This document shows, piece after piece, positions 2,482-37,300 of a stretch of DNA of 64,000 nt. Below the pieces are notes generated by a model, which saw nothing but the letters and a program-made list of their open reading frames with translations, ran no database searches and was not told the origin of the DNA. The stretch is from Amphiscolops sp. MND2022. Its lineage: Eukaryota. Made by a program: the position numbers and the translations under genes. Each line of letters opens with the position of its first letter. Position 1 is the first letter of the stretch. The stretch lies in contig OZ076409.1 of assembly GCA_964187785.1 (NCBI GenBank), positions 930,001 through 994,000 on the forward strand, in the 5' to 3' direction.

Positions 2482-2982
2482 GTAAATATTGCACCCAACA
2501 GCCCCACCCCCCACGCCAGCTGCTAGTCATCAAAAACAGTCACATGTTCCTCAATAGGCGAAGCAAAAAAATCCATGCAGGTACTTTTACTCGCGTTTAA
2601 TCATTCGATAACTGCGTTTACTTATTCCTAGAGAATGAAATTCTTTATTAGTTAATGATTAAACGTAAGCAAAAGTAACTGTATGGATCTTTTTGCTTAA
2701 GATGCTTCTCTTGATCTTAAGAGCTTCTCCAATTGGGGATAGTCAGAGAAAATTGCAAGTTTCATTGCGGCATTTTTGTTGCACATTTCAAAGTCCCACT
2801 GAATTCCAAGATTCTTGAGAAAAATTCATCATGTTTTTTATACAGCGCTCTAGTTTTTCATACCATCCAGTGAGTTTTTAATAGTAAACTACAGTTAAAT
2901 TGCAAACAAAACAAAAATCCTGGCAATTTGCAAATAAGGAAACGTGATATCACTAATCATAGATTTGACGCTAATCGCTAAT

Positions 2983-4797
2983 TGTCATGCCAGCATGATG
3001 GAAATATAATCTACTAAATATCTGTAATGTAAATAATATGTCTTATGTACTTAGATATGGGCAATATGATGTCATATAATAAGATCTATGGTTGTGAGCA
3101 ACCCTACGTTACTTGTACCTAACCCCCCATTCCCCATTGAGATTTTGAGCTATTTACTTATCTAAATACTGAGCATTCTAGTTCCGTTTGTCCGCAATTC
3201 ATGATCGTGCTAATAAGCAAATGATGCTATTTTATATTTAATAGCTTGTCACGAGAAAGGAAAGTAGTCTCTCGGTCAAACTGGACCGCCATAACGAATA
3301 GACAAGATGGATACTCGCTAGGGAACTCCTGCCTCAGAGGAAACTAGCGTGACAAGCCTCCTCTCTTTGGAATACATGAAACGATGAAATAAAGATGCTA
3401 TTAGTGCTAGAACTCGTGATTTGATTCAATCTAACTGGTTTCATCCATATTACATCGCTCAAACACGACCAGAACACCAAAAACGAGAGAATTGAAAAGA
3501 CGATGTAAAAGCGATGAAGCTACTTGATTGAATACTTGTGACCACATGTTTCATCGTTTATGCATCACTCACGCTTCTAAGCCCTGAAGAACAGTGCTAA
3601 ACTAGCGAACGATGGAAAAGCGATGGAAATCTTTCATCGTTTTCTCATCTACAGCTAAAATCACGCTTCTAGACCTGACTACAGTGCTGAACGGCGAACG
3701 ATGGAAAAGCGATGGAAATCTTTCATCGCTTTCCCATCTATAGCAAAAATCATCTTTTAACGATGATAAAGTGATGTAACTACTCCAGAATTATATTCAG
3801 TGCTCTCCCCGTAACTCAGTTCATCGTTTTCACATCTAGTTGATCACTTCAACACTAGAGCGAAGCTCATTCATCATTTCTGCATCCACAGACATACAAA
3901 CAGAATCAACTAGTGAAAACGATGTCTAAACGACAAAACTTGTTATAACTTGCATTTTAATCAGTTCAACGATGAATAAACGACAAAACTTGTCATAATT
4001 TGCCTTTTATCGATTCAGTGCTAGCAAATCATCATTTATACATCCCCGTGCCTCCGAATTTGAACTCTATCCATTTTAGACACTAATTTAGCGCAATTGC
4101 AGTAACTATCATGACTCAGAGAACGCCTGCTGACATTAGTTCATTATAAATTCATGATAATTGATTTGAATTGTGTTATTGCGCAATTGCTAATTGGTAG
4201 CCCTCTTGCGGCATGCAAAACAACCGGTCACGTGACCAAGTGCTAATTAGCACTCACCCGACATCCAATGAGAAGGAAGCGATGGTAAGAATTGCGTCTT
4301 ACCATCGATCTGGTGAGAAGGCTACCAACTAAGACACACGATTTGCTATACCAGCACGATACACTTACATTCTCTGTTAGTTCTACAACACGTATAAAAT
4401 TGCCTTAGTCTTACTACATACTCTCATAATTCAACTCTTATCCGACATTCCTGTTTTTCATTGCTCATGAGTGTCGAATCTACTAAAACACTTCGAAACG
4501 GAAAAGTATTATCTAATTCTTTACCAGAAACTTCCTCGATCGACGCGAATAATATTCCCAATATTAACATGGAATCCTCAAATAATTTCTCAGAAGGGAT
4601 AAGCCGATCGGGTAGGAATTCGCCGACGAACGAAGATCATACTCAAGCGGCGAACGAAGAAAGATTTAATCGTCTGCAAGACGAAATGTCGATACTGAAG
4701 TCTCTGATGGAAAAGATCATCAGTCAAAACGAGGAACGAAACAAGCAAAACGGTGGTTCCTTTGCGACGTCGTCTTACGCCGTAGGGACCTCCAACA
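2983..4797 (+). repeat. 5' LTR (1815 bp)
   Basis: Begins TGTCATGCCAGC, ends GACCTCCAACA. Nearly identical to 17449-19263 (about 14 substitutions counted by eye). Contains an ~90-bp tandem duplication at ~3570-3750. Confidence 0.97.
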
Positions 4798-5948
4798 TGG
4801 TGACAGGAGTCAACAGGACTCACAGAAATCAACGACATCATTTCCAAGACGAAGAAGACGAAGACGACTACGAAGACGCACCCAGCAACACTACGGAATC
4901 TGCACTGCTCAACGCCATCCAGGATCTGCCTCGAAAATTGCAGAAAACCAACACAAAACTTCTTCAAACTCACGTGCCAAATTTCCGCGGATCAAAAGAC
5001 AAATACAACGAGTTCGAACACTTACTACTCAATCATTTCCGCCCCATCGCCAATAAAATCACGGAAGAAGATAAAATCCACTTCTTCCAGAGCTTACTTC
5101 GAGACGAGGCCATCGATTTTTGGCAAACTATCACTATAAGCTCAACAACGACACTGCAAGATGTCCTCCAACTATTCCGAAAAGAATTCGCAAAAGAAGA
5201 CATGAGGGAAGTTGCCAGATACAAATGGAACGAAGCCAAATACGACCCAACCACTCAATCATTCGGAGACTTTCTAAAAGACCTTAAGAAAATCGCCAAA
5301 CAAGCCTATGGCGACGAAGCTGATAAATGTATCAAGATGTTCCTTTTCGGAAAATTACCCGTAGACATCCAACAAGAGCTGACGATGGCTAATAAAGAAG
5401 ACAGCAGCCCTGAAGAGATAAAAACATACCTCCTCCGAAAATACCAATACCAAAACGTTATACAACAATCAACTTCGACATACCAGCCGTTCAACCAGAT
5501 GTCCGATAACAGCACCAAAAAAGAATTCACCCGATCTGACCAATCCCAATCCAAAACCGAGAACAAACAAAAAGGCAAATGTTTCTACTGCGGGAAACAA
5601 GGACATAGAAAACAAGAATGCCGAGGACGACAACGAGATGAGGCTAATGGCACAACCAAACCAGACGCCATACAACCAGCCAAACGACAAGACGACGACA
5701 AACCGAAATACAATCCAAAACTCGTTTGTCAGATTTGCGGATACACCGGACATTCCGCTAGAGATTGCCGAAAACGAATTCCCAAACAAACCAGCACTCC
5801 ATATGGACAACTCCCATACAAACGAACTGACGACCAGGAAAACAAAGAAAGACGACGTGAATTAAAACAACAACAACGCCCAATGAACCAACTGGAAATC
5901 CAAGATGACAACGCAGACCTGTCCTCAGAAGAACAGGATTTTCAGTAA
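4467..5948 (+). CDS. gag: Gag with two CCHC zinc knuckles
   Basis: ORF 4461-5948, first ATG at 4467. Capsid-like core (VPNFRGSKDKYNEFEHLL...LLRDEAIDFW); knuckles CFYCGKQGHRKQEC and CQICGYTGHSARDC. Confidence 0.93.
   Translation: MSVESTKTLRNGKVLSNSLPETSSIDANNIPNINMESSNNFSEGISRSGRNSPTNEDHTQAANEERFNRLQDEMSILKSLMEKIISQNEERNKQNGGSFATSSYAVGTSNMVTGVNRTHRNQRHHFQDEEDEDDYEDAPSNTTESALLNAIQDLPRKLQKTNTKLLQTHVPNFRGSKDKYNEFEHLLLNHFRPIANKITEEDKIHFFQSLLRDEAIDFWQTITISSTTTLQDVLQLFRKEFAKEDMREVARYKWNEAKYDPTTQSFGDFLKDLKKIAKQAYGDEADKCIKMFLFGKLPVDIQQELTMANKEDSSPEEIKTYLLRKYQYQNVIQQSTSTYQPFNQMSDNSTKKEFTRSDQSQSKTENKQKGKCFYCGKQGHRKQECRGRQRDEANGTTKPDAIQPAKRQDDDKPKYNPKLVCQICGYTGHSARDCRKRIPKQTSTPYGQLPYKRTDDQENKERRRELKQQQRPMNQLEIQDDNADLSSEEQDFQ
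4798..4810 (+). promoter_or_regulatory. Primer binding site (tRNA-Leu-like)
   Basis: TGGTGACAGGAGT directly after the LTR-terminal CA. TGG pairs with tRNA CCA, and the rest resembles the complement of tRNA-Leu 3' ends (recalled, not searched). Confidence 0.7.
5936..5942 (+). other. Putative -1 ribosomal frameshift slippery site G_GAT_TTT at the gag/pol junction
   Basis: GGATTTT lies just before the gag stop. The -1 frame is open from here to the protease ORF at 6125. Confidence 0.65.
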
Positions 5949-7282
5949 AGCCACAATTTCACTCCGCGAACAACCAACGTGCGCACCCATACTCTGACTC
6001 AACAACTCACTCTACTCGACAAACTCAACACAATCGTCTTCAGAGGTCTTGGCAGCCCTCTGGTGATTCCCGCAAAGCAGACGAAGTCTATCTGCGAAGA
6101 CACAAACAACCCGATGAACAACCGATGAAGTCGATGAAAACCAACAACAGGTTCACTCCATTGGAAAATTCACACGATGAGCAAACGATGAACTGGCATA
6201 ACGACGCATTGAGGCCTGCGCACGATGCCAAAGAGATGTCCCCACATCTACAATCAACAGACCGACTCTCAACCGATGACAAATCGACAAAACGAATTAG
6301 TAGTAAAACACATGCAAACGACAAGAATAGTATTCCAAAAACTAAAAAACATGCAACCAATAACCAATTTCACGTGCTTAGTCCCACTTTACATTTAAAT
6401 AAAAAGGATAAGATGTTGTTTGTCCCCCTCCAGTTTAACAATTACGAGAACCAAGGTCTTTTAGACACCGGAGCAGTGCAAAGCGCACTCTCAGAAGCGG
6501 AATTACGCAAAATCACCTCTGCTCATCCTGAAGCAGTGCTAGACGAACTACCACCCCCTAACTTTAAAGTTCAGATAGCCAACGGCAATCTAGTCCCAAT
6601 TCGAAAACAAGTTCTTTTGCGCTTTTTCATAGCAGGAAAAGTCTTTGAAGAAGTCTTTTTAGTCCTCCCCACGATGGGAACGATACTGATTGGCATGTCG
6701 TTTTTTGAAAAATACTCTGTCAACCTGGACATTAAAAATCACCTAGTCCATTTCCCTAATCACATGATGTCAATGCAAGTGAGACAACAGACGAATAAGA
6801 AGTTCAAAACTGGGTTAATTGATTTGTATTCCAGCTGCAGAACAATCATCCCTCCCCGCCATCAAGTACTGATTGAGGTCCACAGTGACGCGGACATCTC
6901 ACGTACAACTGGCACGGTCGAAGGGACTCCAGCATTCATGCGCAAGACGTGCCTCTTGGTGTCTCCAGCAGTGGTTGACCTAGACGATGGAAAAACGATG
7001 ATTCAGGTCACCAACCCCAATGAGCACGTGTACACACTCGAGGCCAACACGAACCTGGCCAATTTCAGAATACCAACGCCCCATCAAGCAGCCAACATAA
7101 CGCCGATGCCAGTAGAGCACTTGAAGTTGATCACAGACCACCCCGAGGATGCAGCAGCCGTGATCAATCAACTTTTTGTGAATCCGGAGATGAAGTCTAC
7201 AAAATGGTACCCGACGCCAGAGACGTGTAGTGAGCCAGACAAACTCAACCAGATCGAAAGACTCAAATTTCATTTTCGATGA
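5936..7282 (+). CDS. pol: Pol N-terminal part: aspartic protease plus beta-rich linker
   Basis: LLDTGA protease motif and ILIGMSFF. Separated from the RT frame by a frameshift near 7260-7275. Confidence 0.88.
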   Translation, partial: GFSVKPQFHSANNQRAHPYSDSTTHSTRQTQHNRLQRSWQPSGDSRKADEVYLRRHKQPDEQPMKSMKTNNRFTPLENSHDEQTMNWHNDALRPAHDAKEMSPHLQSTDRLSTDDKSTKRISSKTHANDKNSIPKTKKHATNNQFHVLSPTLHLNKKDKMLFVPLQFNNYENQGLLDTGAVQSALSEAELRKITSAHPEAVLDELPPPNFKVQIANGNLVPIRKQVLLRFFIAGKVFEEVFLVLPTMGTILIGMSFFEKYSVNLDIKNHLVHFPNHMMSMQVRQQTNKKFKTGLIDLYSSCRTIIPPRHQVLIEVHSDADISRTTGTVEGTPAFMRKTCLLVSPAVVDLDDGKTMIQVTNPNEHVYTLEANTNLANFRIPTPHQAANITPMPVEHLKLITDHPEDAAAVINQLFVNPEMKSTKWYPTPETCSEPDKLNQIERLKFHFR

Positions 7283-10200
7283 GATTGTGGCTCTCAGAGA
7301 ACTGGAGAAGCTCGATCCCGCCCGCTCCCATGACGAACGAGTCAAGTTCCTGCAGAACTTCAAGTGGGACGAATCGCTTCTCTCTCCGTCTCAACAAGCT
7401 CAGGTAGAGGAGTTGCTGGTAAAGTACAACTCCATTTTTGCTAGACATCGTTTAGACATCGGCATGAATACTGATTTTAAGGTAAAACTAACTCCCCAGC
7501 ATGAAGAACCAGTTTACTCTCAAAGTCTCCCTACTCCCACTAACCTAAAAGATGACTTGCTTGTAGAATTAGCGTTAATGCAGGAGTACGGGATTATAAC
7601 TACTCTTCCTTGCAGCAAATACTCTTCACCGATATTTGCACAACATAAACCGAATGGTAAACTAAGGATTTTAGTTGACTTGCGGAGAATCAACCACCTG
7701 ATCAAGAACGATTACGGAGAACATAACCACCCCGTTACAACTGTTGCAGACGCTGCTCAGCATATGGCCGGGAAAAAATACTTCTGTAAACTAGATTGTT
7801 CCCAGGCCTACCATTGCATTCCAATGGCCGATGAGCAGTCGATACAACTTTTGTCTTTTAATTTTGGATCACGTACCTTTGCCTTTCTTAGGCTAGCTCA
7901 AGGTCTTAACCGTTCTCTTTCAGCCTTCACGAGCGTAGTCCGTGAGTACTTGGACCCCTTGGTCAAAGCGGACCGCTGTGCCCAGTATGTTGACGACATA
8001 GGCATAGCAGCAAACACGCCTGATGAATTGATTGAAAATTTAGAACTTGTTTTTCAGCAGTTGACCAAAGCTGGATTGAAACTCAGCATGAATAAATGTG
8101 AATTTGGCCAACAGCAAATTGAATACCTTGGCAAATCTATTTCTAGCACCGGAATAGCACCCATCGAAAAACGAATAACAGATTATTTGAAAAAGCTCAA
8201 ACCACCCAATTCAGTTAAAGCTCTCCAACGGTACTTAGGATTTGTCAACTTTTACAGGTCCTATATTCCCCGGTTGGCCGACAAAACAGCCGTTTTTCAC
8301 GAGTTAATCAAAAAAGACACCATTTTTAAATTAGAACAACGCCACAAAGATGTAATTTTTGACATCAACGAAAGTTTACTCAAGGCTACTAAACTGTCAT
8401 TGAAACTTCCCCTCCCGGACAAACAACTAGTAATCATGTGTGACGCGAGTGAGCATGCAGCAGGTTATGTCCTTCTGATAGAAGACTACTCTGAAACACA
8501 ATCGGGTAGCTTAAAGAAGTACGCGCCAGTTGCCTCTGGCTCTAAGAAATTTCAGGGTGGACAGATGTCATTAACAATGTACGCCAAAGAGTTTTTGGCT
8601 ATGCATTTCGCATTCGATGAGTTCGGTCACAATCTGTGGGGTTCGAAGAAGCCTATAATTGTAATGACAGATAATAAAGCACTCACCCGTTTCTTTCAGG
8701 CCAAACACATACCACCGTCACTTTGGAATTTTTGCGACCAGACACTCCAATTTAATTTTATTTTAGCACATGTACCAGGTATCGAGAATCCCGCGGCGGA
8801 TTACCTATCCAGATTGGAAATTAGACCTGAAGAACGTGTTCATTTAAAATTAACTGATTCCATTCCAGTCCATTACATAGAGATCGACATTGCCTCGAAG
8901 ACGCCAAAGCAGGAGGACGATGAACCAGACTACTTCCCTCCAAGCGAACCACTGAGACAGAGGAAGTCACACAATGTAAAAACGATGAAAGTGACCAACC
9001 CTGAGACACTGATGCTCGACGATGGCAAACCGATGAAAACAGTTGACGTGGAGACGACGACAATTAATGACGATGACAAAACGATGAATTGTGTAAAATC
9101 AGCACCACAGGCCTCTGAGAACGACCACACAAGCTGCCCTCAGATCTACCGACTCATGACTGATGATCAATCACCAGTGTACACAAAATTCATCATTAAA
9201 ACATCGTTACTAAACCCAGTAACGAAGGAGGTTAGCCCCTCCGGGGGAGTCGATCTAATTTTAGCTCAAAAAACAAATAGCGACATACAACTGATGTTAA
9301 AAATTTTGTCTGGAGAAACTACCTTGAACCACTCTGTAAACTTGATGTCAATTTTTTTCCAAAAACTTCACAAAATTCGAAAACGCCTTGAAAATGTAAA
9401 CGGAGTCCTGTACCGTATCTTTTATGACCATACAGGCCTTGAGTCCCATAAACAAATTGTTGTACCTGAACAAGTGATGTTAGAAATAATCAGGTTTTTC
9501 CACAACAACCCCGTGCAGGGACACCCTGGTTCTAAAAAGATGCTACATGAACTACGAAAACGCTACTACTCTCCCAGTTTAGCCGAAAAAACACAAAAAA
9601 TTCTAGAAAGTTGTGAAAATTGCATGCGATCAAAATCTACGAATGAATCAAACCTACGCCCGCCGTTGCAGAAGATATACGATCCGTGTAACGGCCCTAC
9701 TGACCTTCTGGAGATAGATATAGTTGGACCACTGCCCGCTTCGAACGGCTTTACCCACATTTTGACCGCAATCGACGTATTTTCGCGTTATATGTTTGCC
9801 GTACCACTGCGTAAACCTGACACAAAGTCTGTTATCAACGCCCTTCTGTCGGTATTCGCCAAACACGCATACGTTCCAACACACATCCTCACAGATAAAG
9901 GATCCGTTTTCACCGCTGAACTGTTGGAACAACTCATAAAAACCGCCGGCATTGAAATCTCCCATGCAACGATAAAACATGCACAAACTATAGGCATGGT
10001 CGAGAGAAGTCATGCAAAACTTAAAAAGATTTTAAAAATACATGTAAATGTAGACAGACCACAATGGGACCGCTATGTCGACATAGCAATCATGGCCCAC
10101 AACACCACGTACCACGCTTCTCTGAAATGTTCACCAACTGAGATCTTTCACGGACGCACTCCATACAACGCTTTGGACCTAAAATACTCTAACCCTGAAA

Positions 10201-11105
10201 GAAGAGTCGACACCAAATTTGGAGACGTCAACGAAATCTTAGACCGCATGAACGAAATTTACCGCGACAACACCGACAACATAGTAGCTGCGTACCACAA
10301 GTACAAAGCTTACTATGACAGAAAAGCCAAAGCCCAACCTCTCAAGGTAAACGACTTTGTTTTCCTACTTGACCCCAAATACGACTCTCAGGGTTGTAAA
10401 GAAGAGTTCAAGACCTTCCACTGGAAGGGTCCGTTCAAAGTGATGAAAGTGCTATCCGACAGTAACTACATCCTTCGGAAAGTAGGAACGTTCAAGACAC
10501 AATGCGTTCATCGCATACGATTGAAAATTTTCAAACCAGAATTCCCTGTAAAAGACGTAGACATTGGTAACCAGCCAGTATACGCTGACACGGATCGCAC
10601 TGAAGACTCTGATATTTTCGACTCGCACGTACCGAGACAACCTGAAACAACCTCGGAACCGGATGAACCAGAAACTGATGAAGAAACACCAGTTGACAGA
10701 GTCATTCGACTAAATTCTCCAGATTACAGACAGGCACTCAGACGCGACAGACCGCTAAATCGACTACCGAACCGACTGTCGTTAACACCACAACCGGAAA
10801 TAATCATCGACGACCCACCTCAAAAAGGCCCACAGGTGCAGTTCAATGAAAACGATGAGATAATTCCACAAGATATCACTGAAGACACATCAAAACCGCC
10901 AAAACCATTAAAAATACCTACCAACACCGAGACACCCCAACAGGTGAACAATGACGAAACGCCAAATCTGATAGCAACAAGGACAAATAAAAGCAAATAT
11001 AGTCTACGCGAAAATCCTCAACCGAAACGCTACTCAGACTTCCTAATTCACGAAATCTCAACTGCTCGAAACGCTCTACGTAAAACAAACACTGTTCTGC
11101 AGTAA
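7230..11105 (+). CDS. pol: Pol: reverse transcriptase, RNase H, integrase
   Basis: RT LRILVDLRRIN / KLDCSQAYH / YVDD; RNase H CDAS...TDNKAL...ADYLSR; integrase H-H-C-C (HNNPVQGH...CENC), IDIVGP / TDKGSVF / VERSH DDE core, GPF motif. Confidence 0.96.
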   Translation: MSQTNSTRSKDSNFIFDEIVALRELEKLDPARSHDERVKFLQNFKWDESLLSPSQQAQVEELLVKYNSIFARHRLDIGMNTDFKVKLTPQHEEPVYSQSLPTPTNLKDDLLVELALMQEYGIITTLPCSKYSSPIFAQHKPNGKLRILVDLRRINHLIKNDYGEHNHPVTTVADAAQHMAGKKYFCKLDCSQAYHCIPMADEQSIQLLSFNFGSRTFAFLRLAQGLNRSLSAFTSVVREYLDPLVKADRCAQYVDDIGIAANTPDELIENLELVFQQLTKAGLKLSMNKCEFGQQQIEYLGKSISSTGIAPIEKRITDYLKKLKPPNSVKALQRYLGFVNFYRSYIPRLADKTAVFHELIKKDTIFKLEQRHKDVIFDINESLLKATKLSLKLPLPDKQLVIMCDASEHAAGYVLLIEDYSETQSGSLKKYAPVASGSKKFQGGQMSLTMYAKEFLAMHFAFDEFGHNLWGSKKPIIVMTDNKALTRFFQAKHIPPSLWNFCDQTLQFNFILAHVPGIENPAADYLSRLEIRPEERVHLKLTDSIPVHYIEIDIASKTPKQEDDEPDYFPPSEPLRQRKSHNVKTMKVTNPETLMLDDGKPMKTVDVETTTINDDDKTMNCVKSAPQASENDHTSCPQIYRLMTDDQSPVYTKFIIKTSLLNPVTKEVSPSGGVDLILAQKTNSDIQLMLKILSGETTLNHSVNLMSIFFQKLHKIRKRLENVNGVLYRIFYDHTGLESHKQIVVPEQVMLEIIRFFHNNPVQGHPGSKKMLHELRKRYYSPSLAEKTQKILESCENCMRSKSTNESNLRPPLQKIYDPCNGPTDLLEIDIVGPLPASNGFTHILTAIDVFSRYMFAVPLRKPDTKSVINALLSVFAKHAYVPTHILTDKGSVFTAELLEQLIKTAGIEISHATIKHAQTIGMVERSHAKLKKILKIHVNVDRPQWDRYVDIAIMAHNTTYHASLKCSPTEIFHGRTPYNALDLKYSNPERRVDTKFGDVNEILDRMNEIYRDNTDNIVAAYHKYKAYYDRKAKAQPLKVNDFVFLLDPKYDSQGCKEEFKTFHWKGPFKVMKVLSDSNYILRKVGTFKTQCVHRIRLKIFKPEFPVKDVDIGNQPVYADTDRTEDSDIFDSHVPRQPETTSEPDEPETDEETPVDRVIRLNSPDYRQALRRDRPLNRLPNRLSLTPQPEIIIDDPPQKGPQVQFNENDEIIPQDITEDTSKPPKPLKIPTNTETPQQVNNDETPNLIATRTNKSKYSLRENPQPKRYSDFLIHEISTARNALRKTNTVLQ

Positions 11106-11200
11106 GTAGAAAACGGCAGAAAACATGTAAAAGACGATCTCACATCAAATCGATGGTTAAATAACACTCCATCGTGAAGAAACAGTAACATTACGAAAAA

Positions 11201-12140
11201 GCGATGTAAATCCGATGGAACTTTTCCATCGGAGCCACATCGCCAGCAATCCACTGAAAAGACCAAAAATGTTTAAATGATGGATCACGCCCACCGTTTG
11301 TACATCCTTACCTTCTCTTTGACCATGCCACAGTAATATGCTGAAGCTTTCTCATCTGGTTATTAGTAATTCGTAGGCCTCGCCTCGTGCCAACTCAGGT
11401 AGGTAACACAGCCGCTAGCACGGTTCACACAAATGTACACATGAAACGATGGAAAACAGATACGCCATCGACCTCTTTAAAACAAAACAGTTAAACGATG
11501 TAAAAGTGCTGGAAATCCTCCATCGTTTCTACATCCCCCTATCTCTCTACACTTACCTTCAATAAAAAGAGAATCAATCCTCAATCGTCAACAGACCATA
11601 GGCTTTGCCTTGGGTTGACTCACGGTTCATTACCGCCCTGATTGAGGACACCGAATACATACAAATAATCCCATTAAAAGGATCATAAAACGCCAAAGAA
11701 TGAGAACGATGAAAAAACGATGGAAATCCTTCATCGTTAACTCATCGTCAAATTCTCCCCAACACAAACGTACCTAGTCATCAACTAAACGATGCGAATA
11801 CGATGAAAATGTTTCATCGTTCTCTCATCGTTGCACTTACCACCAGACGAACCAAACACACTAATCGCAACGATGCCAAAACGATGGAAAATCCCCATCG
11901 TTCACATCACGATACACGAAACTACCTAGAAAGTACTACGATGGAAAAACGATGGAAATTTCCCATCGGTTGCCCATCGCTGATAAAATCCTAAGAAAAA
12001 TTCAACAATCCTCACTCAACGATGGAGTATCGATAAAATCTCTTCACCGATACACCCATCGTCTCCTAAATCAACGCCACACTCACAAAACCCTCCAGAA
12101 CGATGTGATTACGATGGAAATTTCCCATCGCCTACACATC
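11201..12140 (+). repeat. Array of ~45-nt CGATG...CATCG hairpin units with unique spacers, downstream of pol
   Basis: Units start at ~11201, 11494, 11705, 11788, 11869, 11937, 12018, 12099; the last six are 68-83 nt apart. Consensus aACGATG-N4/5-ACGATGgAAAT-N3/4-CATCG-N4/5-CATC(G). Confidence 0.85.
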
Positions 12141-12536
12141 TCTTCAAAAGTACATGAAAACGATAAAAGCATGTAAATAAACGTCCACACATGAAAATTA
12201 AACGAATACATTCTCTGCTAAGCGGAAATACAAACGAAACATGCATTCCAAAAGGTGCTCCTATACCGCCCTATCAAACAACCTTATAAACTGTATATGG
12301 AACAAAAACCAAAACTCAAAGCCCTTACAAATTCCTTGAACTTACTCGAAACAAAAGATCGGAGTAAAAATCAATTACCCACCGAATTACACAGTCTTCA
12401 ATTTAAAATTCTCTCTATCTACAAACGCAAATGGCCAACAATGTTAATACAGTGTAAGCGCTCTGCACTTACCAAACAGAATAAAATGTACATAATCTAT
12501 CAAGTTCACAGTCTAACAAAATAAATATCACGATCT

Positions 12537-15500
12537 TCAAATTCTGTGTTCCCCTCCAATTTCTGGACTTTCAACTCTTCCTCCTTCTACGGTAAAACTC
12601 ATTCGTTCCATAACTGAATCTCGGTATCCATCCGCAGCGACTCCTCCGACTTCCTTCCATAACTCTCCCAAAGTAATAGTCCGCAAATCATTCACTCTTC
12701 CAAGAGCAGCTACACATTCCGCCACTAATCCATCCGGAATACTTTGTAGACTCCTCACTCCACGAGAAGTACACCAACTCAGAACAGTACGGAACATGCT
12801 TGACAATGACTCTGACGATAGACTAGGCAAACCGAAATTATCCAGATTCCAACTCTGGCTGACTCCACCACTCAAACAGAACACAAACTGCATCAATCGT
12901 CTCAAACTCACATTAGTCGCCCCATACTGCCACAATTCGTGCTCATGCCCAGATAAATCATATTCTGCCACGTGGTCATCTCTAAACTGCCCAACAAACC
13001 GCACAAATGAGTCTATCATAGCTGTCTTTTCGGCATACAACACTCGACCACTACACTCTAGAGCTTCGACTAAATAACCGACAGTCTCTTCTAACTCCGA
13101 CACACGTCCATACATCAGAACTTCCGGACTCCAACAACTAAGTGCCATGTTAATTTGATCGGACACCTGCGGCATCTGCAGAAGATTGAGAGCAACTGTC
13201 ATAAAAAATTCTTCGACAACAGTGACTGCATGTTGATATTCCCCCCCACAAGGATAATACACTCGGTGCGACTCAAAAGTTCGAAACATAAGCCCTTCTT
13301 TTGCAGCACTCAAACGAAGACTGCTTAGCCGAAAATTTGCCCAGCGTTGCAATTCGTAAGCTTGAGGTACCGTCCCAGGCTCAGCAACCAGCAGACACAG
13401 CTCACGCACTGCAGCAAATACCTCGTAGACAATGTGTAGCCCTCGATACAATCCTTCACCAAAGGTCCGCTTCATCTTCTCAAACACTAAAACAGACAAG
13501 AACAACGATAACCAACGCGATTACAAGAAACGATGTCTTTCCAATGAATCCAAAGTATTCCTATTTTCTTGTCTTTGTATATCACAGTACTAAAACAGGA
13601 CGATGACGAACAGATGCAACATACCTACAAATCCATAATTATCTTAATAGTACTTCCACCCAACTTAGTTACAAATGAAAAACACCAATAATAACCGATC
13701 GTATACACCAATTCCATAGCATGCAACTTGAGCGACAGTCCAACTTCCTTCGAGATCAGTAGCTCCATCCGCAAGGGATCCACACTTCGAGACACATGGT
13801 CAAGCCGTTCCACCAATGCCAATATGTCGTTCCACGATCCTCGCAACTCGTTTAGTACCGCCACAATTTCCCAATTCGAAATCTCGCCATTCACAGTACA
13901 CTAAAATAAAACACTCAGAAAGTCAGCCTAGCCATAAACATAAAAATCCATACACCCTCCATCCTACACACGAAACCACTCTCACGCTAACAGATCAAGA
14001 TCCCTAACCCATACGACTTAAAAATTACATCAGAAATTCATACTAACACGCAACAATGCAGGACAAGATGATAAGAGGGGATCAGTCATACTATCGCGCA
14101 GTTTCGTCAAAAAGAAGTTCATAACCACATGCACGTCCTGCCCAGGGAACACAGACAATCCAGTCGTAGTAACCACACGCAACAATGACTCCAACTGCAG
14201 TGGATTCACATCCAAACATCTCCGTCCGCCTTCTTTCTCCATTAATCCTCGTATTGAAGGCACTTTTACACAACTGAAACCCACTGGCGCAAGCTCTTCT
14301 GCAAAACAACACCAGTAATCCGCGAGCCACTCTGACATCCTCTCTTCCCAGTCTCTGATAGCTACAAGCTCGAACAACACATACCCTTGCAACGCCTCGG
14401 TGTCCGCTACTGTCACTGAACATCGAACCACATTCCGCTTTAGCTCCAAATAGAAACCAACAGGGCACTCTCCACATAAAGCCATCGAAATAGATCGTAC
14501 CACGTATGGCCATACCCCGAAAATCAAAAGCGCCTAAAACACATGTAAAACAAAATAACCAAACAGAACTAACACCAGCACACCGTTATAACACAAATAT
14601 CACCCTTGTTCTAAGCAAATTCACACATACAAACATGTAACCTATGTAACACATGTATTTCATGTAACATATACTCACAATAACGTCCTCTTTTCGACAT
14701 ACGCCTCCGAAGAGACTCCCGTAGGAAGCATCAGTTGTTGCGACGGAATCCCATAAATCTGTGACGCTCGTAACATCTCCGCCTCGGTAGAGAGCATCGA
14801 CAACGAAACACAGAAACAGACGCAAACTGCGCTCGCTGTCAGGCACTTCGAGTACACCCGAGTCCCAGATACTGCCGCCTCTTGCTTCCGCCGCAAACAC
14901 CTCTTGCACCGAAAAAGCCGGACACACCTCCACATCTGGCACAGATAGACCTCGAATCTCTTCTTCCATGTCCGCTGCTTCCACGGCGCTCATCATTGCC
15001 CCGGTCCTCCGACGCAGAAACAAACCACGCCGAGAACGCACAACGCAGTCTAACTTGTGATGGACCACACCACGACAATGCTCTAGAAAGGTCGAAAGGC
15101 CTCGGCTCCCGACCTTCAGATCACTCCGGCACAGCAGACATCGTACGTACGCATCGGACGACCTATGAGTCCGTGCGAAACCCAGAGACATCCCTGCGTA
15201 CGGATCTTGGAACCAGCTTGCTCTAATGCTGTTCCTTGCAACTAAAACAAAGTTTGATGATAAAACGATGAAACCCCTCGCTCTAGCAGCTAACCCACGT
15301 TCTCCGCTTGCGTAAAACGATGAAAAAACGATGTTTTCACTTAACGCTAACAACAAAATTAGAACGATGAAAAACCGATGTTTCTACTGCAAAAAGCCAG
15401 AAAACGCCCTAAGACGACAAAAGACGGCCACCAAAACGCAAAGTACGAAAAATAATCAAAAACCCGAAAACAAAACTAAAATGTTTAACTAAACACTTCA

Positions 15501-16492
15501 ACCGATAAGTTCAGTAACCTGATAACATTAACATATTGAAATTACGGTGAATCACATGATCCTTGAAGCTGTTTAGTTTAACTGACCGAACGAGACGACG
15601 GGTGGAAACTACAGCATTGTCAACAGATGAACTGCCCCCGTCAGATGTGCTTGATTCATCACCAGCAGACAGGGCTCCTGGAACTACACAACCACCCACA
15701 ACAGCCTCAACACTTGATACACCAGCATCCATCGGAACTTGCTCTTCTGCATCGACGCCTGCTGGATCCATTCGACTGCTGGGTGAAGACTCAATTGAGA
15801 ACTCACGTACTGTTTGTGTGGCGACACTCTGCGGAGCCCCTTCCTGGTCAGAACCACACGCCACAGACATCATGTGGCGAACGACAGGCCTCTCCAAGCC
15901 ATACGCCTCTCGCGGGACTGAAAGCAACAGAGTTCATCATTGTTACATCGCGGAATCCACTTCGCTGACAAAGAGATGAATCTAATGCGAATCCACTTAA
16001 ATTGCTACAACAGGCGATTTAAAACCACGAATACAAACAAAAGTGTCACTTACTGGCACTGGCAAGCTCTTCTCGCATTACATGCCGAAAGTAACCGTCA
16101 TACCAATGCAATGACAGCGACCCAAGAGATTGCTGCCACGGAGAATACACTGAAACGACATCATGAATGAATAACGATGATTGAACGATGGAGAACATAA
16201 GTTGGCACACTTCTCGAAAAGAACGGCAGTCGACTCACTCTGTGGATACAAGGGCATGAACGGCTGAGGTCCCGATGGAGTCTGAATGGGCGTCATGGGC
16301 CCCACCCCCGTCAGTTGGGTATACACCCTAGGGCTCCCAGACCCAGAAGGCGTCGCTTGATCTGCAACAGCTAAACGAAATTTATCCACATTAGAGTTGC
16401 ACCAATCCACCACAGACGTGAAGATGAAGAATGAATAACTAACGAATTGGGTTAGAATCACCGAAAGGATTCATATGTTGGTCGTCATACAT
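12537..16492 (-). CDS. Spliced antisense accessory gene of the retrotransposon (~1016 aa; BED-like zinc finger plus hAT-transposase-like body)
   Basis: Hand-built exons on the minus strand: 16492-16444, 16370-16197, 16149-16054, 15917-15587, 15306-14679, 14533-14048, 13900-13629, 13589-13525, 13486-12537. All introns GT-AG, all phases compatible, 3051 nt with no internal stop. The 5' exons are less certain than the last five. Confidence 0.8.
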
Positions 16493-17448
16493 CTTGACGA
16501 TGACAAATGGAAACAACGATTGCAATCTGAAAGAAAACACGACACGATTGAAAGAAGGATAGTAAATGTGAACTCAATTTGAAGAAACGAAATCAACAGT
16601 AATCGACAAATATAATGGCCTGATCAACCGTGATATGAGATCGATTTCAACCTTAAAATATCAAAGAAGCAAAACGTTTCGACTACATCTAACAATACAC
16701 TCTCAAAAGACAAAAAATCTGCTCAAAATTCTTCAATATTGATTCAATTTCACTGCCTCCTTCCACCAACTAGCAGAGGAAACACCAGTTTGAATGGACC
16801 AATTTACTCAAAATACTGTGGAAATTTTCTCAAAGTGTTAGATGCAGCTGCCAGCGTCGTTAGCAATTTGAATGATTTACACACTCAGCGGAAAGACGCA
16901 CTCGAAATTGTGGCTACTTTATTTACTTAATAACTCATCAAGATAACTGAACGTTTCCGTCTCGCACACAGTTGGCATTACTGCCGCTCCACCACGCAAG
17001 TTATTACATAATATTTTGTTCACGCTTATTCAACTCTCCATCACAAGTTCATCGCTCTCCGGTCACGTGTTATTCATTCTCTCCAATCTATCAGACGAAA
17101 CGATGCTACCAATTCCAATTGTGAACAAATTCCAGCGAGATTCTACAAATCACTCCTGACAGCTATTTTCAAGCCGATCTGCGGACAATCGACGGGCCAA
17201 GAACTAGAACTGACGCGTCCAAACTTAACCGAAATAACCGAGCTCACACCAGATACCAAACCGATGAAACACGTCTCCTTCTCAGAGAAGACACAAATGA
17301 GACAGAACCAACGAAGGCACAAAACCATTGAGAACCAACGAAGGCCACTCCCCTGAGACCAGCGAAGGAACATGTCAAAGCCCACGCTGCGACAACCATC
17401 CTCTGCACATTTGGCCCCTGCACTCCTCTTCCAAATTCCCCCCGGGAG

Positions 17449-19263
17449 TGTCATACCAGCATGATGGAAATATAATCTACTAAATATCTGTAATGTAAAT
17501 AATATGTCTTATGTACTTAGATATGGGCAATATGATGTCATATAATAAGCTCTATGGTTGTGAGCAACCCTACGTTACTTGTACCTAACCCCCCATTCCC
17601 CATTGAGATTTTGAGCTATTTACTTATCTAAATACTGAGCATTCTAGTTCCGTTTGTCCGCAATCCATGATCGTGCTAAAAAGAAAATGATGCTATTTTA
17701 TATTTAATAGCTTGTCACGAGAAAGGAAAGTAGTCTCTCGGTCAAACTGGACCGCCATAACGAATAGACAAGATGGATACTCGCTAGGGAACTCCTGCCT
17801 CAGAGGAAACTAGCGTAACAAGCCTCCTCTCTTTGGAATACATGAAACGATGAAATAAAGATGCTATTAGTGCTAGAACTCGTGATTTGATTCAATCTAA
17901 CTGGTTTCATCCATATTACATCGCTCAAACACGACCAGAACACCAAAAACGAGAGAATTGAAAAGACGATGTAAAAGCGATGAAGCTACTTGATTGAATA
18001 CTTGTGACCACATGTTTCATCGTTTATGCATCACTCACGCTTCTAAGCCCTGAAGAACAGTGCTAAACTAGCGAACGATGGAAAAGCGATGGAAATCTTT
18101 CATCGTTTTCTCATCTACAGCTAAAATCACGCTTCTAGACCTGACTACAGTGCTGAACGGCGAACGATGGAAAAGCGATGGAAATCTTTCATCGCTTTCC
18201 CATCTATAGCAAAAATCATCTTTTAACGATGATAAAGTGATGTAACTACTCCAGAATTATATTCAGTGCTCTCCCCGTAACTCAGTTCATCGTTTTCACA
18301 TCTAGTTGATCACTTCAACACTAGAGCGAAGCTCATTAATCATTTCTGCATCCACAGACATACAAACAGAATCAACTCGTGAAAACGATGTCTAAACGAC
18401 AAAACTTGTTATAACTTGCATTTTATTCAGTTCAACGATGAATAAACGACAAAACTTGTCATAATTTGCCTTTTATCGATTCAGTGCTAGCAAATCATCA
18501 TTTATACATCCCCGTGCCTCCGAATTTGAACTCTATCCATTTTAGACACTAATTTAGCGCAATTGCAGTAACTATCATGACTCAGAGAATGCCTGCTGAC
18601 ATTAGTTCATTATAAATTCATGATAATTGATTTGAATTGTGTTATTGCGCAATTGCTAATTGGTAGCCCTCTTGCGGCATGCAAAACAACCGGTCACGTG
18701 ACCAAGTGCTAATTAGCACTCACCCGACATCCAATGAGAGGGAAGCGATGGTAAGAATTGCGTCTTACCATCGATCGGGTGAGAAGGCTACCAACTAAGA
18801 CACACGATTTGCTATACCAGCACGATACACTTACATTCTCTGTTAGTTCTACAACACGTATAAAATTGCCTTAGTCTTACTACATACTCTCATAATTCAA
18901 CTCTTATCCGACATTCCTGTTTTTCATTGCTCATGAGTGTCGAATCTACTAAAACACTTCGAAACGGAAAAGTATTATCTAATTCTTTACCAGAAACTTC
19001 CTCGATCGACGCGAATAATATTCCCAATATTAACATGGAATCCTCAAATAATTTCTCAGAAGGGATAAGCCGATCGGGTAGGAATTCGCCGACGAACGAA
19101 GATCATACTCAAGCGGCGAACGAAGAAAGATTTAATCGTCTGCAAGACGAAATGTCGATACTGAAGTCTCTGATGGAAAATATCATAAGTCAAAACGAGG
19201 AACGAAACAAGCAAAACGGTGGTTCCTTTGCGACGTCGTCTTACGCCGTAGGGACCTCCAACA
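17449..19263 (+). repeat. 3' LTR (1815 bp)
   Basis: Begins TGTCATACCAGC, ends GACCTCCAACA, followed by TSD CTAAT. Confidence 0.97.
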
Positions 19264-19286
19264 CTAATAGCGCCGCTTTAGCGTAA
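18933..19286 (+). pseudogene. Copy of the gag N-terminus carried in the 3' LTR, running into flanking DNA
   Basis: Matches the first ~110 gag codons (MSVESTKTLRNGK...AVGTSN), then diverges at the LTR end. Confidence 0.9.
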
Positions 19287-20849: not shown

Positions 20850-22252
20850 TTCTCCATTGACCAGAAAATCCCAGATGATTGGAACATAGCTGTCATTATC
20901 CCGTGCTATAAAAAGGGAGACAAAGCCAAATGCTCCGACTACCGTGGAATCAGCTTGATCGCCATTGCCCTGAAGGTTCTTGAAGCGGTCATCAAAAACC
21001 GTTTGGAACCATCTTACACGAACGCTGCCCGGATAAACTAAGCCGGCTTTAAGAAGGGTGGCGGCAAATACTGAAACAACGATATCAGTCCAGTCGATGG
21101 ACCGTCCTAATCTTTATCAGTTTCAAGGCGGCCTTCGACAGCGTTAACCGAGAAGCTCTCTGGACAATACTGTCGAACCTCGACCTTCACCCCATCATCA
21201 TTAACATCCTAAGAACCATGCAGGCAAAAGCAACCAGGAAAGTACGCGTAACCAACACCCTCTCACGCGATTTCGAAATAGCGAACGGAGTACGTCAGGG
21301 ATCAATAATTGGCCTATTTCTTGTTAACCTGGCGATTGATTGGATCATGCAAAACGCCCTTTGTCATGGAATACATGGTATTAGTCTAGACGATACGTAC
21401 GTGCCGTACCTTGACTTCGCCGATGATATCTGTCTTCTGGATGACAACGCCGAAGATGTTCAACCCTTACTCGTTAGTGTTTTCCATCAGCCCAAAAATT
21501 TCGGCTTGAAGATCAACGCGTCAAAGACCAAATTCTGCTCCATTGACCCCAACATCAATATCACCTGCTCTGGCGAACAACTGGAAAGAGTAGAAACATT
21601 CACCTACCTTGGCTCATCGATACAACCTGATAGCGACATCGCAGGAGAAATTAAACTCCGTTACGCGAAGTCTCTCGGCTCGATAAAGAAGCTGATAAAA
21701 TTCTGGCGTAGTCGCAATATTTCAACAACGATCAAATCAAAAGTTCACCACGCTTGCATCCGGAGCTCCCAACTGTATTGCTGTGAAACGTGGCCACTCA
21801 TAACATCTGTTATTAAAAAACTGGCAGCTTTGAGATCAGATGCGCCAGATCCATTCTCCACCCTAGTCGCCCCATCAAGACTTCTGACATCCGTGGAAAT
21901 CTTCAACTCGATAGCAGCGTCTCCAGGACCATCCAGAAGGACAGACTGAAATGGCTTGGTCATGAACTCCTCCATGTCCCCACTACTCTTCCAAACTCCG
22001 CCCTAGAAAAGGGACCCGACTGGACACGTCCCAGGGTCGGCATGAAGTCTGGTGAGACCTAGTCAAAGCGGATCTCAGCTCCATCCTCAAACCCGTGAAA
22101 ATGAATAAAGAAGTCTGGGACGCAGAATGGTTCTCGTTGGCCAGCGACGCGGCAAGAAACAGGCGCCAGTGGAACGCAATTATTCGTGACGTGCAAGAGG
22201 CGGGCAATGGGCAGTGACTGCTTGATACGCCCTAACTGGAACTGGAACTGGA
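20850..22252 (+). mobile_element. 5'-truncated, degenerate RTE-like non-LTR retrotransposon (LINE)
   Basis: PDDWNIAVIIPCYKKGDKAKCSDYRGISL, GVRQGS...NLAIDWIM, LDFADDICLL, FTYLGS, YCCETW. Stops and frameshifts present. 3' tail of (AACTGG)x3 at ~22233-22251. Confidence 0.88.
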
Positions 22253-28727: not shown

Positions 28728-29382
28728 CGCAAAAGACTTCATTCTAATCACAGCTGAAGAGTATTCACCGTTATCGTTACTTCGCTAATCAGAAGGAGCA
28801 GAGCGGGCAGCAACAACTGACTTGAAGGAAAACATAAATACATCAATATCAGAGCTCGAAAAAAAGGGAAAAATAGCTTGCGTCATCAGAATGTGCACAA
28901 TGGAATTTGAATTCCTGATACAAAAAAAGATCGCAACACGCGACAAACCCATCTCATTTCAAAAAGACAGACGCAGCATCACAATCGTCCAAATGTGAAA
29001 ACGTCATTATTGAACAATTATCTGTGGGACTCAGTGGTGGAAAAGTTGAACGCTGTCGACAAATACTTCGCAAGGTTAACGATACTGAAAACGTTTCAAT
29101 CGATAAAAGCGGGAAGAATTCTATTACACGACCGCGACGCCTAGGTGTCTGTTTTTGATTTCTTCTACTATCTGCAGACAACAAGGAAAAATTTAAACGA
29201 CTCTACGCTTGACTCAATTTGCCGCTTGCAATTGCCAGAGTACGTTTTAGCGACGACGAATGCTCAAAACGTATCTGCTGAAATCAAAAGAACAATTTTT
29301 AACGAAGAGGACTCGCAAGACCAATCTGAATTGTTCAGCTATCAAGCCAAGTGGCTGCGTCCTTACTAAAGCGTCCATCCTT

Positions 29383-30594
29383 ATGGAACAAAGCATCAGA
29401 AAAACACAAACAAGGAGAACCAACAAACGGGAATACTTTTGCAGCAGCTGTGCGCATTCGTTGGGAAAAGGAACACGTCGAACGCCATTAATCTCGTGTA
29501 ACGTTTGTGGCTGGGTTCACTTCAAATGTAGCGGTCTGAGCAGTGCAGCCGACTATCACAAAACTTCAGAGTTTTATGTGTTCGAAGTGTTCAAAAACCA
29601 AACGACTGATACCACCGAATGCGGTTTCAAATGCTTACAGCAAGTTACACTCTCTTTACACTTCATGTCACAATCCGGCAGCGTTTGGAAGCCGTGAGTC
29701 ACTGAAAAAGTACTCGAACTGCAGTTATGAACAAGTAGACATTTACTTTCATAAGAATGGGACTCACTCAAAGTTCAAACAAAGTAAGAAGAAACTTCTT
29801 CGCCTCAAAGTTCAAACATTCAGACTCAATGAGGTTTGGTCGGTCGACTCGGCTGTTATTCAGCAGCCTGCTCAACCAAACAATGGCGTCAATTTTTTTT
29901 CGTCGCGATGGATATACTCAGCCAATTTCGTTGGGTCCGACCGAATAAACGAAAAACTGCCGATGCATGTAGAAATGCATTGAAGGAGATAATTTCAGAC
30001 ATCAAAGACGAATCACCCTTTATGCATCCACTTTTCTGTACCTGCAGTGCCTGGGAACCGGAACAAATTTGGGTGGACAAGGGCCGAGAATTTGCTAAAA
30101 ATTTGCATCATTCTGCCTTAACGCAGCCATTTATTTGTACTCAACAAACAGTGAAACAAAATCAGTATTTGCAGAGCGAAATATTCGCTAGCTAAAATCT
30201 ATCATTTTCAAGTATCTCAATAAAAACAGCACTGAAGTCTACATTGACAGGATGCAGAGTTTTGTTAACGTGATAAATTTTCGAGTTAACAGATTTACCA
30301 AAATGGCACCCAAGCAAGTGCAAAAGTCAGACGAAGCGTTTCTTGTTTTACAACAAAATTCCAATGCCGTGCAAAAACCAAGTTTTAAAATTGGACAGCA
30401 CGTTAAAAATAGGGCGAAAACTTGACCTTATTCATCGTGTCTACCGCATCCACTTCACTGTAAATATCTTTGAACTTGTGGCGGTCAAAACCTTGAACCC
30501 TTCCACGTACTTGCTCAAAGACGCTGATGAGCAGTTGATTGAAGGCAACTTTCAAGTGAGAGCGCTTGTTCGGTTTGAAGCTGAAAACGTTTGA
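29383..30594 (+). pseudogene. Polinton rve integrase with N-terminal PHD-type finger
   Basis: CSSC...CNVCGWVHFKC...CSKC, then LYTSCHNPAAFGS, EVWSVD, VAMDILS, PEQIWVDKGREF, AERNIR, TYLLKDADEQLIEGNF. Several frameshifts. Confidence 0.85.
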
Positions 30595-34339: not shown

Positions 34340-37300
34340 TTCATAAAAACTTCTCAGTATATAATGCCCATAACCTAGAGACCGTGCTCTATCTTCAAAT
34401 TGTCATTATAGAAACTGACGGCTACTTTAATGACCCGTTTGACATCAATTTGATGGTTTTCGGACTTCAATTGTGTCGTCGACTTTCGAACAGGCTGCTT
34501 ACCCAACAAGCAGGACTTGGACAAATCGTGGTGGAGAGTCTTTTTCACACTCTTTTGAACGCCCTTGGTTCTCTGCTTGACGCCGCCTTGGAATTGAATA
34601 CTGTACATTTTTGATCGTAAGCTAACAATTTCAGTCAACACCTTTCTTGCAGCTCGTCGGTCATTCATTGTCGTTGGCACTTTTTTGTTTACCTTATCAT
34701 GGAGGAAAGGTGTCTCTGGATATTAAGATAAATCGTGCAAGTGTTTGAATGACATTATCTCAGTATATAGATCTTTCGTTTTTATACGGTAAAGGAGAGA
34801 GTCTGTATCTGTGTAACGAACCTTTAAGTTTTAGTGATAACGAGTTTTTCATTTCTTCGTAATAAAACTTGTACAGACAAAATTTCGAGAGTTCATGAAT
34901 AGACGCACCCAAAGGAGTTGGTTTGTTGCAGAGTTATTTGGATGGAATCATAGTTATAGACACCAAATTGTCGTGAATGATTTGAAACCCCCTTGAAGGT
35001 TGGCTTTTAAAACGCTTTCTCATCCTCCTTTGTTTTGCCGAATCAAGCATTGCTCATCAGTTTGTAAAAGTTTTTCTCAAAGTCATTGACTGCTTGCTTC
35101 CTCAATACTGTGTTTTTTGATTTTATTCTCCGAGCCATTTCATCTGTCTGAACTGGATCACGCGATGCAGCCTCTTAACTTTCAGGCCATATTTGAGGTG
35201 AAATTTCAAATTATGATAGTGGCATACATAATTGTTCTCGTCAAAGAGTGTTTCAATCAGCTTCTTTGAACCATCTGATGACACTATAATACCAAAAATT
35301 TGCGCAAATGAGGAAAGCCAAGACTGTTTGGTCATGAGCTTTTCACGTGCCAAGGAAGATCACTGTGTTTATCTTGCATTGAGGCTGGATATTCCAAATC
35401 AACATCCACAAAGTATCCCACTGGAGAATCCTCGTCAGTCTGAACAATTTTTGAGAGTGTTATAGCGTAATTCCAGGCATATTGATCGAGTGGGAGCATT
35501 TGCAGCATTGTTCCAGCATACAACGACGCCACATCAAAGAAGACGCCAAAGACCGAAGGCATTTTGTCGTCGAAGGAATCCCTATAAGAGTTGTTGGCTT
35601 CAAAATGACGCAATTCGCCAATTCCATTTTTTTTCCACGAATGCATCTCTCGAAAAAAAGCAGCATGTCCACATCTGACAAAAGACCCAGTGTTGCTCGC
35701 GTTGTTATGAGCATTGCCTCCCAGCTCATATTGGGTGCCGAAAAGAAATGCGGTGGATCCAGGGAATACACTTTCATACAAACTTTCCTAAGCAGTTGAA
35801 ACACATCGGCTAGGATGAAAACGTCTATTTTCAGATATTTGTCATGATAGTCGCCATGACATTTGCATTGAAAAAAGTTATAAATATGGAGTGCCTGGGC
35901 GTATTGTGCTTCAGTTATATCAACCTTTCCAGTAAATGAATTTTTCCAACAGTATCCAAAGGGTGGCAAGGGTTCCTTAAATTTTCCAAAAGAACCTAAA
36001 TAGCTCTATGGAAAAACCCTTTCTCAGTAAGCAGCGTCTATTCCACCTCGGGATTGGTTTGAGTGAATTGATCTTCCAAAAGCAGAAAGTTTTCCTTCTT
36101 TAATGTTTTCGCTAAAGCATTGAGACCTTGAGTCATGAACTGGAACCTATTGAGAAAACTCAGAGCGTTGGAAACATTAACCTTTACCTTTCTTAGTTGC
36201 TTAGGAGCACAAAGGAACTGTAATTGAAAACGAAATAAAAACTTCATCGGTTCTAGAAACAGCAGACAATTTTTTTATTTTCCTTCAGCAACAAATTTTT
36301 GATGATATGATGTGAATCACAACGAGGGGTTATGAAAAAAGACAGGCAAATAGGTGACAGATCGCGCTTTCAAATTACATTCAGAATAAGCCACCCCAAA
36401 AACGAAACCCGTGATGATGCACAACTCTGAGACCCTGATCTACCTTGGCTCCACAGATACAACAGTCGATTTCAGGCGCAGACATCAACTGCTTTCGCTC
36501 CGATTGTGACAATTTCAATTGGCGATGTTTTTGCCTCTGACTGTAAGTCCAAGACAACCAACTTCTCAACTTGTCCATCAAATGCTCTAAACAGTCCTTT
36601 TTTTACAAAATAAGCACTAAGTTAGGCTAGAACTTCGTTGATCGAAAAGAACAGCATCAAAACGTGCCGGATATTGTTTTTCAAATTCAGTTTTGTGTGA
36701 AGTTCTTCGCGTTTGTTGAGAACCGTTGTCACTCGGAACATCGATATCTTTCAAGTCTGCATAGACAACAAAAAGACACCAATGTGTTCTTTGCCAATTG
36801 TTGAACGACAATGTCGTATCGCATTAAGGCATTGTAATTTCCAGTGGTTGGTGATCCTCGCAAAACTCAAGATGTTTCCTGTAGTTTGATCGGATGATGG
36901 GTTGAAAGCAATCGCCGCAACATTTACTCTTCGGGCCTTTACGTCGCTTTCTTGAAGATCGATGCAATTGGTACATTAAGTTCGAAAAGTTTTTGATCAG
37001 GCAGTAGTGACTTTTCTGCACGTCCAACAACAAAAAAAATTATTTCTCCGACGACTTGTTTGATTTTTTGAGTGATAAACATTTTGCAATGCCTCATTTT
37101 CGATTCGATACACGGTAATCGACAGATCATTGCGTTTTTCGAAGAAGCGTCTTTTGCTCAAACACATTGGAAAGTCATATTCTGGAAACGTAGTTCATCG
37201 TATTTATCTATATAAGATGATGGTCCATCAACATTCTTCTTGTGAGGATACAAGTTAGCCAATACAGAATACAGAGAGCAAAACTCTTCCCGTTTGTTCT

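Follow-up and report, generated by a model that had tools for sequence, protein, structure and literature searches.

We analysed 64,000 nucleotides of genomic DNA from Amphiscolops sp. MND2022 (contig OZ076409.1, positions 930,001 to 994,000; this whole stretch is called the window, and positions are counted within it) and found that a complete, young Ty3/Gypsy retrotransposon of 16,281 bp carries, on the strand opposite to its own genes, a gene of eight exons running from 16492 to 12537, with a spliced frame of 2817 nt, 938 codons and zero internal stops. This antisense gene is abundant in the genome, is under purifying selection and occupies a fixed tail-to-tail place next to pol. Selection, copy number and constant place beside pol together argue that it has long been integral to this lineage of elements and is not the passenger of one copy. 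As the best explanation we propose, and consider on balance probable, an accessory gene of the Gypsy lineage that encodes a finger protein regulating its own element.

The gene model rests on an alignment of the minus strand to six further copies that this genome contains, at 94% to 65% DNA identity. The conserved blocks are edged by invariant AG and GT and, when joined, gave five exons (exons 4 to 8) with a continuous frame of 2496 nt, to which further conserved blocks upstream added three exons and the start codon (Table 1). The seven introns measure 73-340 nt, with canonical splice dinucleotides at 13 of 14 positions in the window copy; the donor of intron 4 (15581-15580) is non-canonical in this copy only, being canonical in 4 of 4 near-identical and 6 of 6 diverged copies. 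Of the 9 aligned copies, 8 to 9 retain the splice sites of the upstream exons, and the spliced upstream frame is open in seven of the nine and disrupted in two. Judging from its orientation, the gene would keep its seven introns through retrotransposition because it lies antisense in the genomic RNA. A preliminary description of this DNA had let the gene run from 15150 to 12537, which proved too short, and had assigned a middle segment, ILWIHWKDIVSLFEK, to the protein; the peptide ILWIHWKDIVS (13558-13526) is intronic and lies in another frame. The stretch that holds it is gapped and unconserved in diverged copies, and the flanking exons are joined directly in the intron-less homologues P0014 and P0034, which match our exon 7-exon 8 junction, so that a mini-exon at this place is excluded. 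The encoded protein has four parts, namely a fast-evolving N-terminus that is Pro/Ser-rich and acidic, a nearly invariant BED-like CCHH(C) finger, a conserved Arg-rich stretch and an orphan body of about 670 residues. Over 12001-16000, GC skew on the plus strand amounts to -0.37 and -0.25, compared with about 0 to -0.06 outside the element.

In L012, a copy on another chromosome, the frame of exons 4 to 8 is intact over 2490 nt at 62% protein identity, and comparison with the window gave a ratio of non-synonymous to synonymous substitution rates (dN/dS) of 0.127 at a synonymous divergence (dS) of 2.2. Resolved by exon, dN/dS was 0.38 for exon 4, 0.049 for the finger exon, then 0.14 and 0.18, with the last exon saturated; within a second clade, B, the ratio was 0.074-0.168. 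The frames of the finger and the C-terminus stay open and conserved even in copies with only 65-69% DNA identity. When a last-exon homologue from outside this genome was used to search its 1.07 Gb, 1796 first-look candidates yielded at least 111 scored matches, 72 of these 111 being free of internal stops as counted from the list of matches. In 20 sampled distant loci, exons 5, 6 and 8 were present throughout and exon 7 in 19, with identical order and size, at protein identities to the window of 46-78% (exon 5), 24-62% (exon 6) and 25-61% (exon 8). All four exons were complete and stop-free in 11 of 26 loci examined, and these intact loci together with the window fall into three clades which are 33% identical to each other. 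The position of the gene is constant: in 7 of 7 elements, which are that of the window, three close relatives of it and three members of the distant clades, with pol proteins 60-97% identical to the window's, the 3' end of Gypsy pol lies on the opposite strand just past the stop of the antisense gene.

The finger, which the preliminary description had quoted at about 15050-15150, is encoded in a conserved frame on the minus strand at 15149-15057 as a CxxC...H...HH peptide, within the exon of dN/dS 0.049. An alignment of 15 finger-exon sequences from the three clades contains 50 invariant columns, Cys and His residues among them; invariance, complete or almost so, extends to the two Cys, the His-Cys, the His-His pair, one more Cys and a stretch R.RRGL.LR. 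Pfam zf-BED is found below threshold in 4 of the 15 sequences (best E 0.028, 14.9 bits vs a cut-off of 20.6), and EABR (5 members), DUF7830 (4) and SLX1_C (4) match the finger sequences as well as zf-BED does. For comparison we used five full-length hAT transposase open reading frames (ORFs) from the same genome, L049-L053. The finger-exon profile scored 10.7 bits (E 1.5e-5 as a single comparison) on the BED finger of L052 and no more than 0.2 bits on any of the remaining four, with a best score of 1.1 bits among 105 reversed or shuffled control sequences. In the opposite direction, the sole match of the hAT profile in 12 of 12 antisense-family members was the finger (E 0.003-0.17), and hhalign of the finger against the hAT alignment gave P 0.03, the controls lying at 0.24-0.7. 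Among PDB sequences, a hidden Markov model (HMM) of the finger exon found nothing under E 0.5. From these profile comparisons we describe the finger, with modest confidence, as BED-like; it may stem from a hAT transposase or from another BED protein. Matches to the hAT C-terminal domain number at least 150 in this genome; some of them are full-length ORFs with BED fingers, 597-697 codons long, such as L049-L053, and because such ORFs are present a hAT donor for the finger would have been available.

The preliminary description had gone further and taken the whole protein for an eroded hAT transposase. Of this claim the BED-like finger stands, at the modest confidence just given, and no other testable feature shows hAT. 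The four C-terminal peptides on which it had drawn do belong to one exon, on the minus strand at 13151-12864, in a conserved open frame, but the hAT dimerisation region that they were thought to represent could not be found: PF05699 is absent, in hmmscan at E<=10, from the last exon of the window, of the two other clades and of seven distant homologues, while two hAT ORFs of the same genome, serving as positive control, scored 2.7e-15 and 3.9e-17. Scans of L051 and L052 returned PF05699, zf-BED and DUF659; in the antisense protein no match to DUF659 or to the hAT RNase-H-like domain was obtained, and Pfam assigned no family to any exon frame of the window gene, even at E<=10. With HMMs of exon 6 and exon 8, no hAT protein scored above zero bits, the single hit reported for exon 8 against the five scoring -0.8 bits. 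When exons 6, 7 and 8 were compared with the hAT alignment by hhalign, P was 0.2, 0.22 and 0.67, with controls at 0.38-0.91. The clades share no conserved acidic column at the position that this non-significant hhalign alignment pairs with the first catalytic Asp.

NCBIfam and PHROGs scans of the protein returned noise only, and the HMMs of exons 8 and 6 found nothing under E 0.5 among PDB sequences. An exhaustive search of the last exon against 1.84 billion protein representatives retrieved 47 homologues, all of at most 367 residues and the distant ones at 27-30% identity, which are unnamed ORF pieces from ENA, zero of them transposase-sized; word-index searches with exon 8 and with the exon-5 alignment found no longer, full-length relatives, which is weak evidence. 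On the structural side, AlphaFold2 modelled the last exon from a 29-sequence alignment as all-helical, with 16 helices and a pLDDT of 80.9, and the final 315 residues are accordingly predicted to fold as a helical domain. Foldseek gave no match to this model at E<=0.001 in PDB or BFVD. For exon 6, the expected site of an RNase-H-like core, the AlphaFold2 model was poor (pLDDT 43.6) and the fold search uninformative, and ESM Atlas returned no usable match. Viral RNA-dependent RNA polymerase clusters listed by ESM Atlas for exon 8 (0.91-0.93) were judged to be chance, with a recognition value of 2091 (<2300) and 128-148 shared features, and a dimer prediction for the last exon scored 0.00, with the alignment unused and the fold uncertain.

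hAT transposases (Hermes and L049-L053) and their ZBED derivatives share with the window protein the overall size, a predicted helical C-terminal half and, probably, an N-terminal BED-like finger, and Hermes was the first structural match, though a weak one. ZBED genes derive from hAT. The window protein differs in that no dimerisation domain, DUF659, RNase-H-like match or conserved acidic triad was found in it, and its gene has neither terminal inverted repeats (TIRs) nor an 8-bp target-site duplication (TSD). The entire protein could descend from a hAT transposase (BED finger, RNase-H-like core, helical insertion, C-terminal dimerisation region) whose catalytic residues were lost and whose sequence changed past recognition; such a descent is in our estimation unlikely, and we doubt to the same degree that the body taken by itself is of hAT descent. 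The body beyond the finger cannot currently be assigned to a family.

A candidate target for the finger lies within the element itself. In the window we counted 37 matches to the motif CGATGRAA, vs 6.0 +/- 2.1 expected, a number that 0 of 100 shuffles reached, and 35 of the 37 belong to the element. They form arrays spaced at 11 bp in both LTRs (long terminal repeats; 3382-3728, with arrays at 3610-3639 and 3699-3728, and 17848-18194) and behind pol (11213-12119), and three further copies stand in intron 4 (15266-15372). Each LTR contains an 89-bp unit twice, carrying two direct and one inverted CGATGRAA at 11-bp spacing. One motif-bearing block of intron 4 is invariant in seven diverged copies that are otherwise 65-75% identical, and in clades B and C motif copies stand at fixed distances upstream of exon 5. 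We hypothesise that the arrays are the binding target of the antisense protein.

In the regulatory explanation that we favour, an antisense transcript would start between exon 1 and the 3' LTR, and the protein made from it would enter the nucleus and bind DNA through its finger. As its likeliest targets we regard the CGATGRAA arrays of the two LTRs, those behind pol and those of the intron that precedes the finger exon, and the outcome would be control of the element's own transcription or chromatin. Several points weigh against this explanation. We infer expression and splicing of the antisense gene from conservation only, and the window copy, with its non-canonical intron 4 donor, may be unable to make the full protein. 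DNA binding is read from a finger that scores under the zf-BED cut-off and to which three unrelated Pfam families match just as well. That protein and motif are linked is likewise purely inferred; a host factor might as readily use the motif, or it might work within the sense RNA. More specifically, and tentatively, we suggest that the element might have its own sequence-specific regulator, which binds the 11-bp-spaced CGATGRAA arrays and in which an orphan body of 670 residues is joined to a BED finger, perhaps all that can still be recognised of a hAT transposase once captured; this would constitute a self-contained circuit of transcription factor and binding sites which travels with the element and is swapped between lineages by recombination. 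With respect to such exchange, it should be noted that gag-pol (3697-11830) is 88.7% identical over 8180 nt to the element made up of L013, L012 and L014, with a pol dS of 0.197. Identity to that element is only 69.1%, over 5814 nt, in the 3' region that holds the antisense gene (12249-17923), with a gene dS of 2.2. The switch from 89% to 69% identity falls in the motif array behind pol, and the apparent mosaic ancestry fits recombination between element lineages.

The conservation evidence would be the same if the protein were an accessory factor with another job, for example tethering the pre-integration complex to chosen chromatin, helping nuclear import or blunting host silencing. Such a job could account for the orphan body at the C-terminus, which makes up two-thirds of the protein and whose maintenance under selection is unexplained by simple DNA binding, and nuclear localisation and possible roles in retrotransposition are listed for plant genes of this kind in the portions of a review drawn on here (PMC7264820). 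Nothing, however, points to contact with integrase or with a silencing factor, and no domain is recognisable, which leaves this alternative improbable. That an independent DNA transposon or other insertion is nested in this Gypsy copy, for which the BED-like finger alone could be cited, is effectively refuted: no TIR pair brackets the gene, the spanning inverted pairs being 12-19-nt CGATG-based sequences or having one arm in an exon, the sole TSD is the 5-bp one at the LTR ends with no second duplication, and place and orientation are the same in 7 of 7 elements from three clades. Retroelement antisense transcripts can act as RNA, according to the portions of the review considered (PMC7264820), but that the open frames are a by-product, with only the antisense RNA mattering, or chance frames, is extremely improbable given dN/dS of 0.07-0.17 at saturated or high dS, 938 open codons over eight exons and conserved splice sites.

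Genes of comparable arrangement have been described in plants, where antisense additional ORFs (aORFs) lie between pol and the 3' LTR of Gypsy elements such as Grande (gene23), RIRE2, Retand (ORF4) and PvRetro13; in the sections of the review used here (PMC7264820) their function is given as unknown, with nuclear localisation for some, no clear database similarity and a proposed transcription unit of their own. The window gene shares with these plant aORFs (as far as those sections describe them) the place, the orientation, the presence in most family copies, the lack of clear database similarity, a transcription unit of its own as a proposal and a suspected nuclear or regulatory role; in the terms of the aORF-3R placement, it lies on the opposite strand in the gap that separates pol from the 3' LTR, as seen in 7 of 7 elements, and it has at least 111 copies and is under purifying selection. 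It differs from them, on the same descriptions, in its animal host, its eight exons, its 938 codons and its BED-like finger, and the transposase_28 domain given for Retand has no match in it, the plant proteins having been compared by description only. An animal host agrees with the content of the genome, in which rhodopsin-type receptors gave 75 matches at E<=1e-10 and WRKY gave none. The window gene is thus of the same kind as the plant aORFs, but in an animal, unusually large, intron-rich and with a BED-like finger. The brtn gene of Boty-like Gypsy elements in Botrytis cinerea (Zhao et al. 2011, Virology, as cited in PMC8365987) is likewise an additional antisense gene of a Gypsy element. 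Complex retroviruses offer a looser parallel, a minus-strand regulator at the 3' end of a retroelement, as in the antisense transcript from the 3' LTR of human T-cell leukaemia virus (HTLV), whose antisense promoter is noted in the cited portions of the aORF review (PMC7264820). Between these retroviral antisense genes and the window gene there is no sequence or domain relation. To our knowledge, retroviral antisense proteins are small and are not BED-finger proteins. Among animals, rotifer elements have extra ORFs downstream of pol, none described as antisense in the sections consulted (PMC5408684), and in the corresponding sections of an annelid survey antisense aORFs come up solely through citation of the plant studies (PMC8220671). 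Our literature search, which covered such sources in part, found no description of such an antisense gene in an animal Gypsy element, and this is weak evidence of absence.

Backward extra genes of LTR retrotransposons are thus documented in plants and a fungus, with a function still unknown according to the review sections cited (PMC7264820), and a family with more than 100 copies, three old clades and strong selection is good material for asking what such genes do. Here a candidate DNA-binding finger and a candidate motif come together, which makes their relation directly testable. If the body is a transposase relic, a class I element would have domesticated a class II enzyme; if it is not, the gene would represent an orphan protein family of unknown fold, long maintained by retroelements.

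The carrier has two LTRs with TG..CA ends, a short TSD and gag followed by protease, reverse transcriptase, RNase H and integrase, as characterises Ty3/Gypsy. By self-comparison of the window and inspection of end sequences, it contains one direct-repeat LTR pair with a TG start and CA end at both copies, and a primer-binding-like TGG... sequence lies directly 3' of the 5' LTR. The TG..CA ends and the 5-bp TSD show a single complete element and rule out that the 1815-bp repeat combines an LTR with the beginning of another, truncated element. The gag frame crosses the LTR end and the primer-binding-like sequence, its first in-frame ATGs (in the 4398-4840 stretch) lying at about 4467 and 4569, inside the 5' LTR, which ends at 4797.

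Table 1. Features of the antisense gene and of its carrier element, in window coordinates
Feature	Position	Strand	Remarks
Exon 1, start codon	16444..16492	-	ATG kept in 9/9 aligned copies, donor GT in 9/9
Exon 2, Pro/Ser/Gly-rich	16239..16370	-	Conserved upstream block
Exon 3, conserved PW..SLGS....WYD motif	16054..16149	-	Motif present in clades B and C too
Exon 4, acidic, Ser-rich, fastest evolving	15582..15917	-	dN/dS 0.38
Intron 4, three conserved CGATGAAA motifs at 15266, 15318, 15365	15242..15581	-	Donor non-canonical in window copy
Exon 5, zinc finger (15149-15057) and basic stretch; most conserved exon	14679..15241	-	dN/dS 0.049
Exon 6, 162 codons; strands then helices in low-confidence model	14048..14533	-	Conserved block
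Exon 7	13696..13900	-	AG and GT kept in 7/7 aligned copies
Exon 8, 315 codons and stop; four C-terminal peptides	12537..13486	-	Conserved frame; all-helical AlphaFold2 model
CGATGRAA array, pol to antisense gene stop	11213..12119	+	13/37 window matches (10 on + strand, 3 on - strand)
TSD, left, 5 bp	2978..2982	.	Same 5 bases outside both LTRs
5' LTR, 1815 bp, TG...CA	2983..4797	+	Self-BLAST, 99.2% identity to 17449-19263
gag open frame, zinc knuckle	4398..5948	+	ORF list; Pfam zf-CCHC E 1.3e-6
Protease frame	5909..7282	+	Pfam gag-asp_proteas E 7.8e-5, under curated cut-off
pol (reverse transcriptase, RNase H, integrase), 1303 codons	7194..11105	+	Pfam RVT_1 1.1e-23, RT_RNaseH 3.4e-14, Integrase_H2C2 1.7e-13, rve 2.2e-14
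3' LTR, 1815 bp	17449..19263	+	Self-BLAST; TG/CA ends read directly
TSD, right, 5 bp	19264..19268	.	Matches left copy

Rfam and tRNA scans of the window gave no match, and a type-B DNA polymerase considered for the ORFs at 35332-37709 was rejected as being without Pfam support. Elsewhere in the window, a reverse-transcriptase fragment is found at 21053-21949 (RVT_1 3.2e-18), an ORF at 29251-29697 has a weak PHD-finger match (E 0.002, under cut-off), and a 650-bp direct repeat pair lies at 40678-41327 and 52567-53218 with 74% identity.
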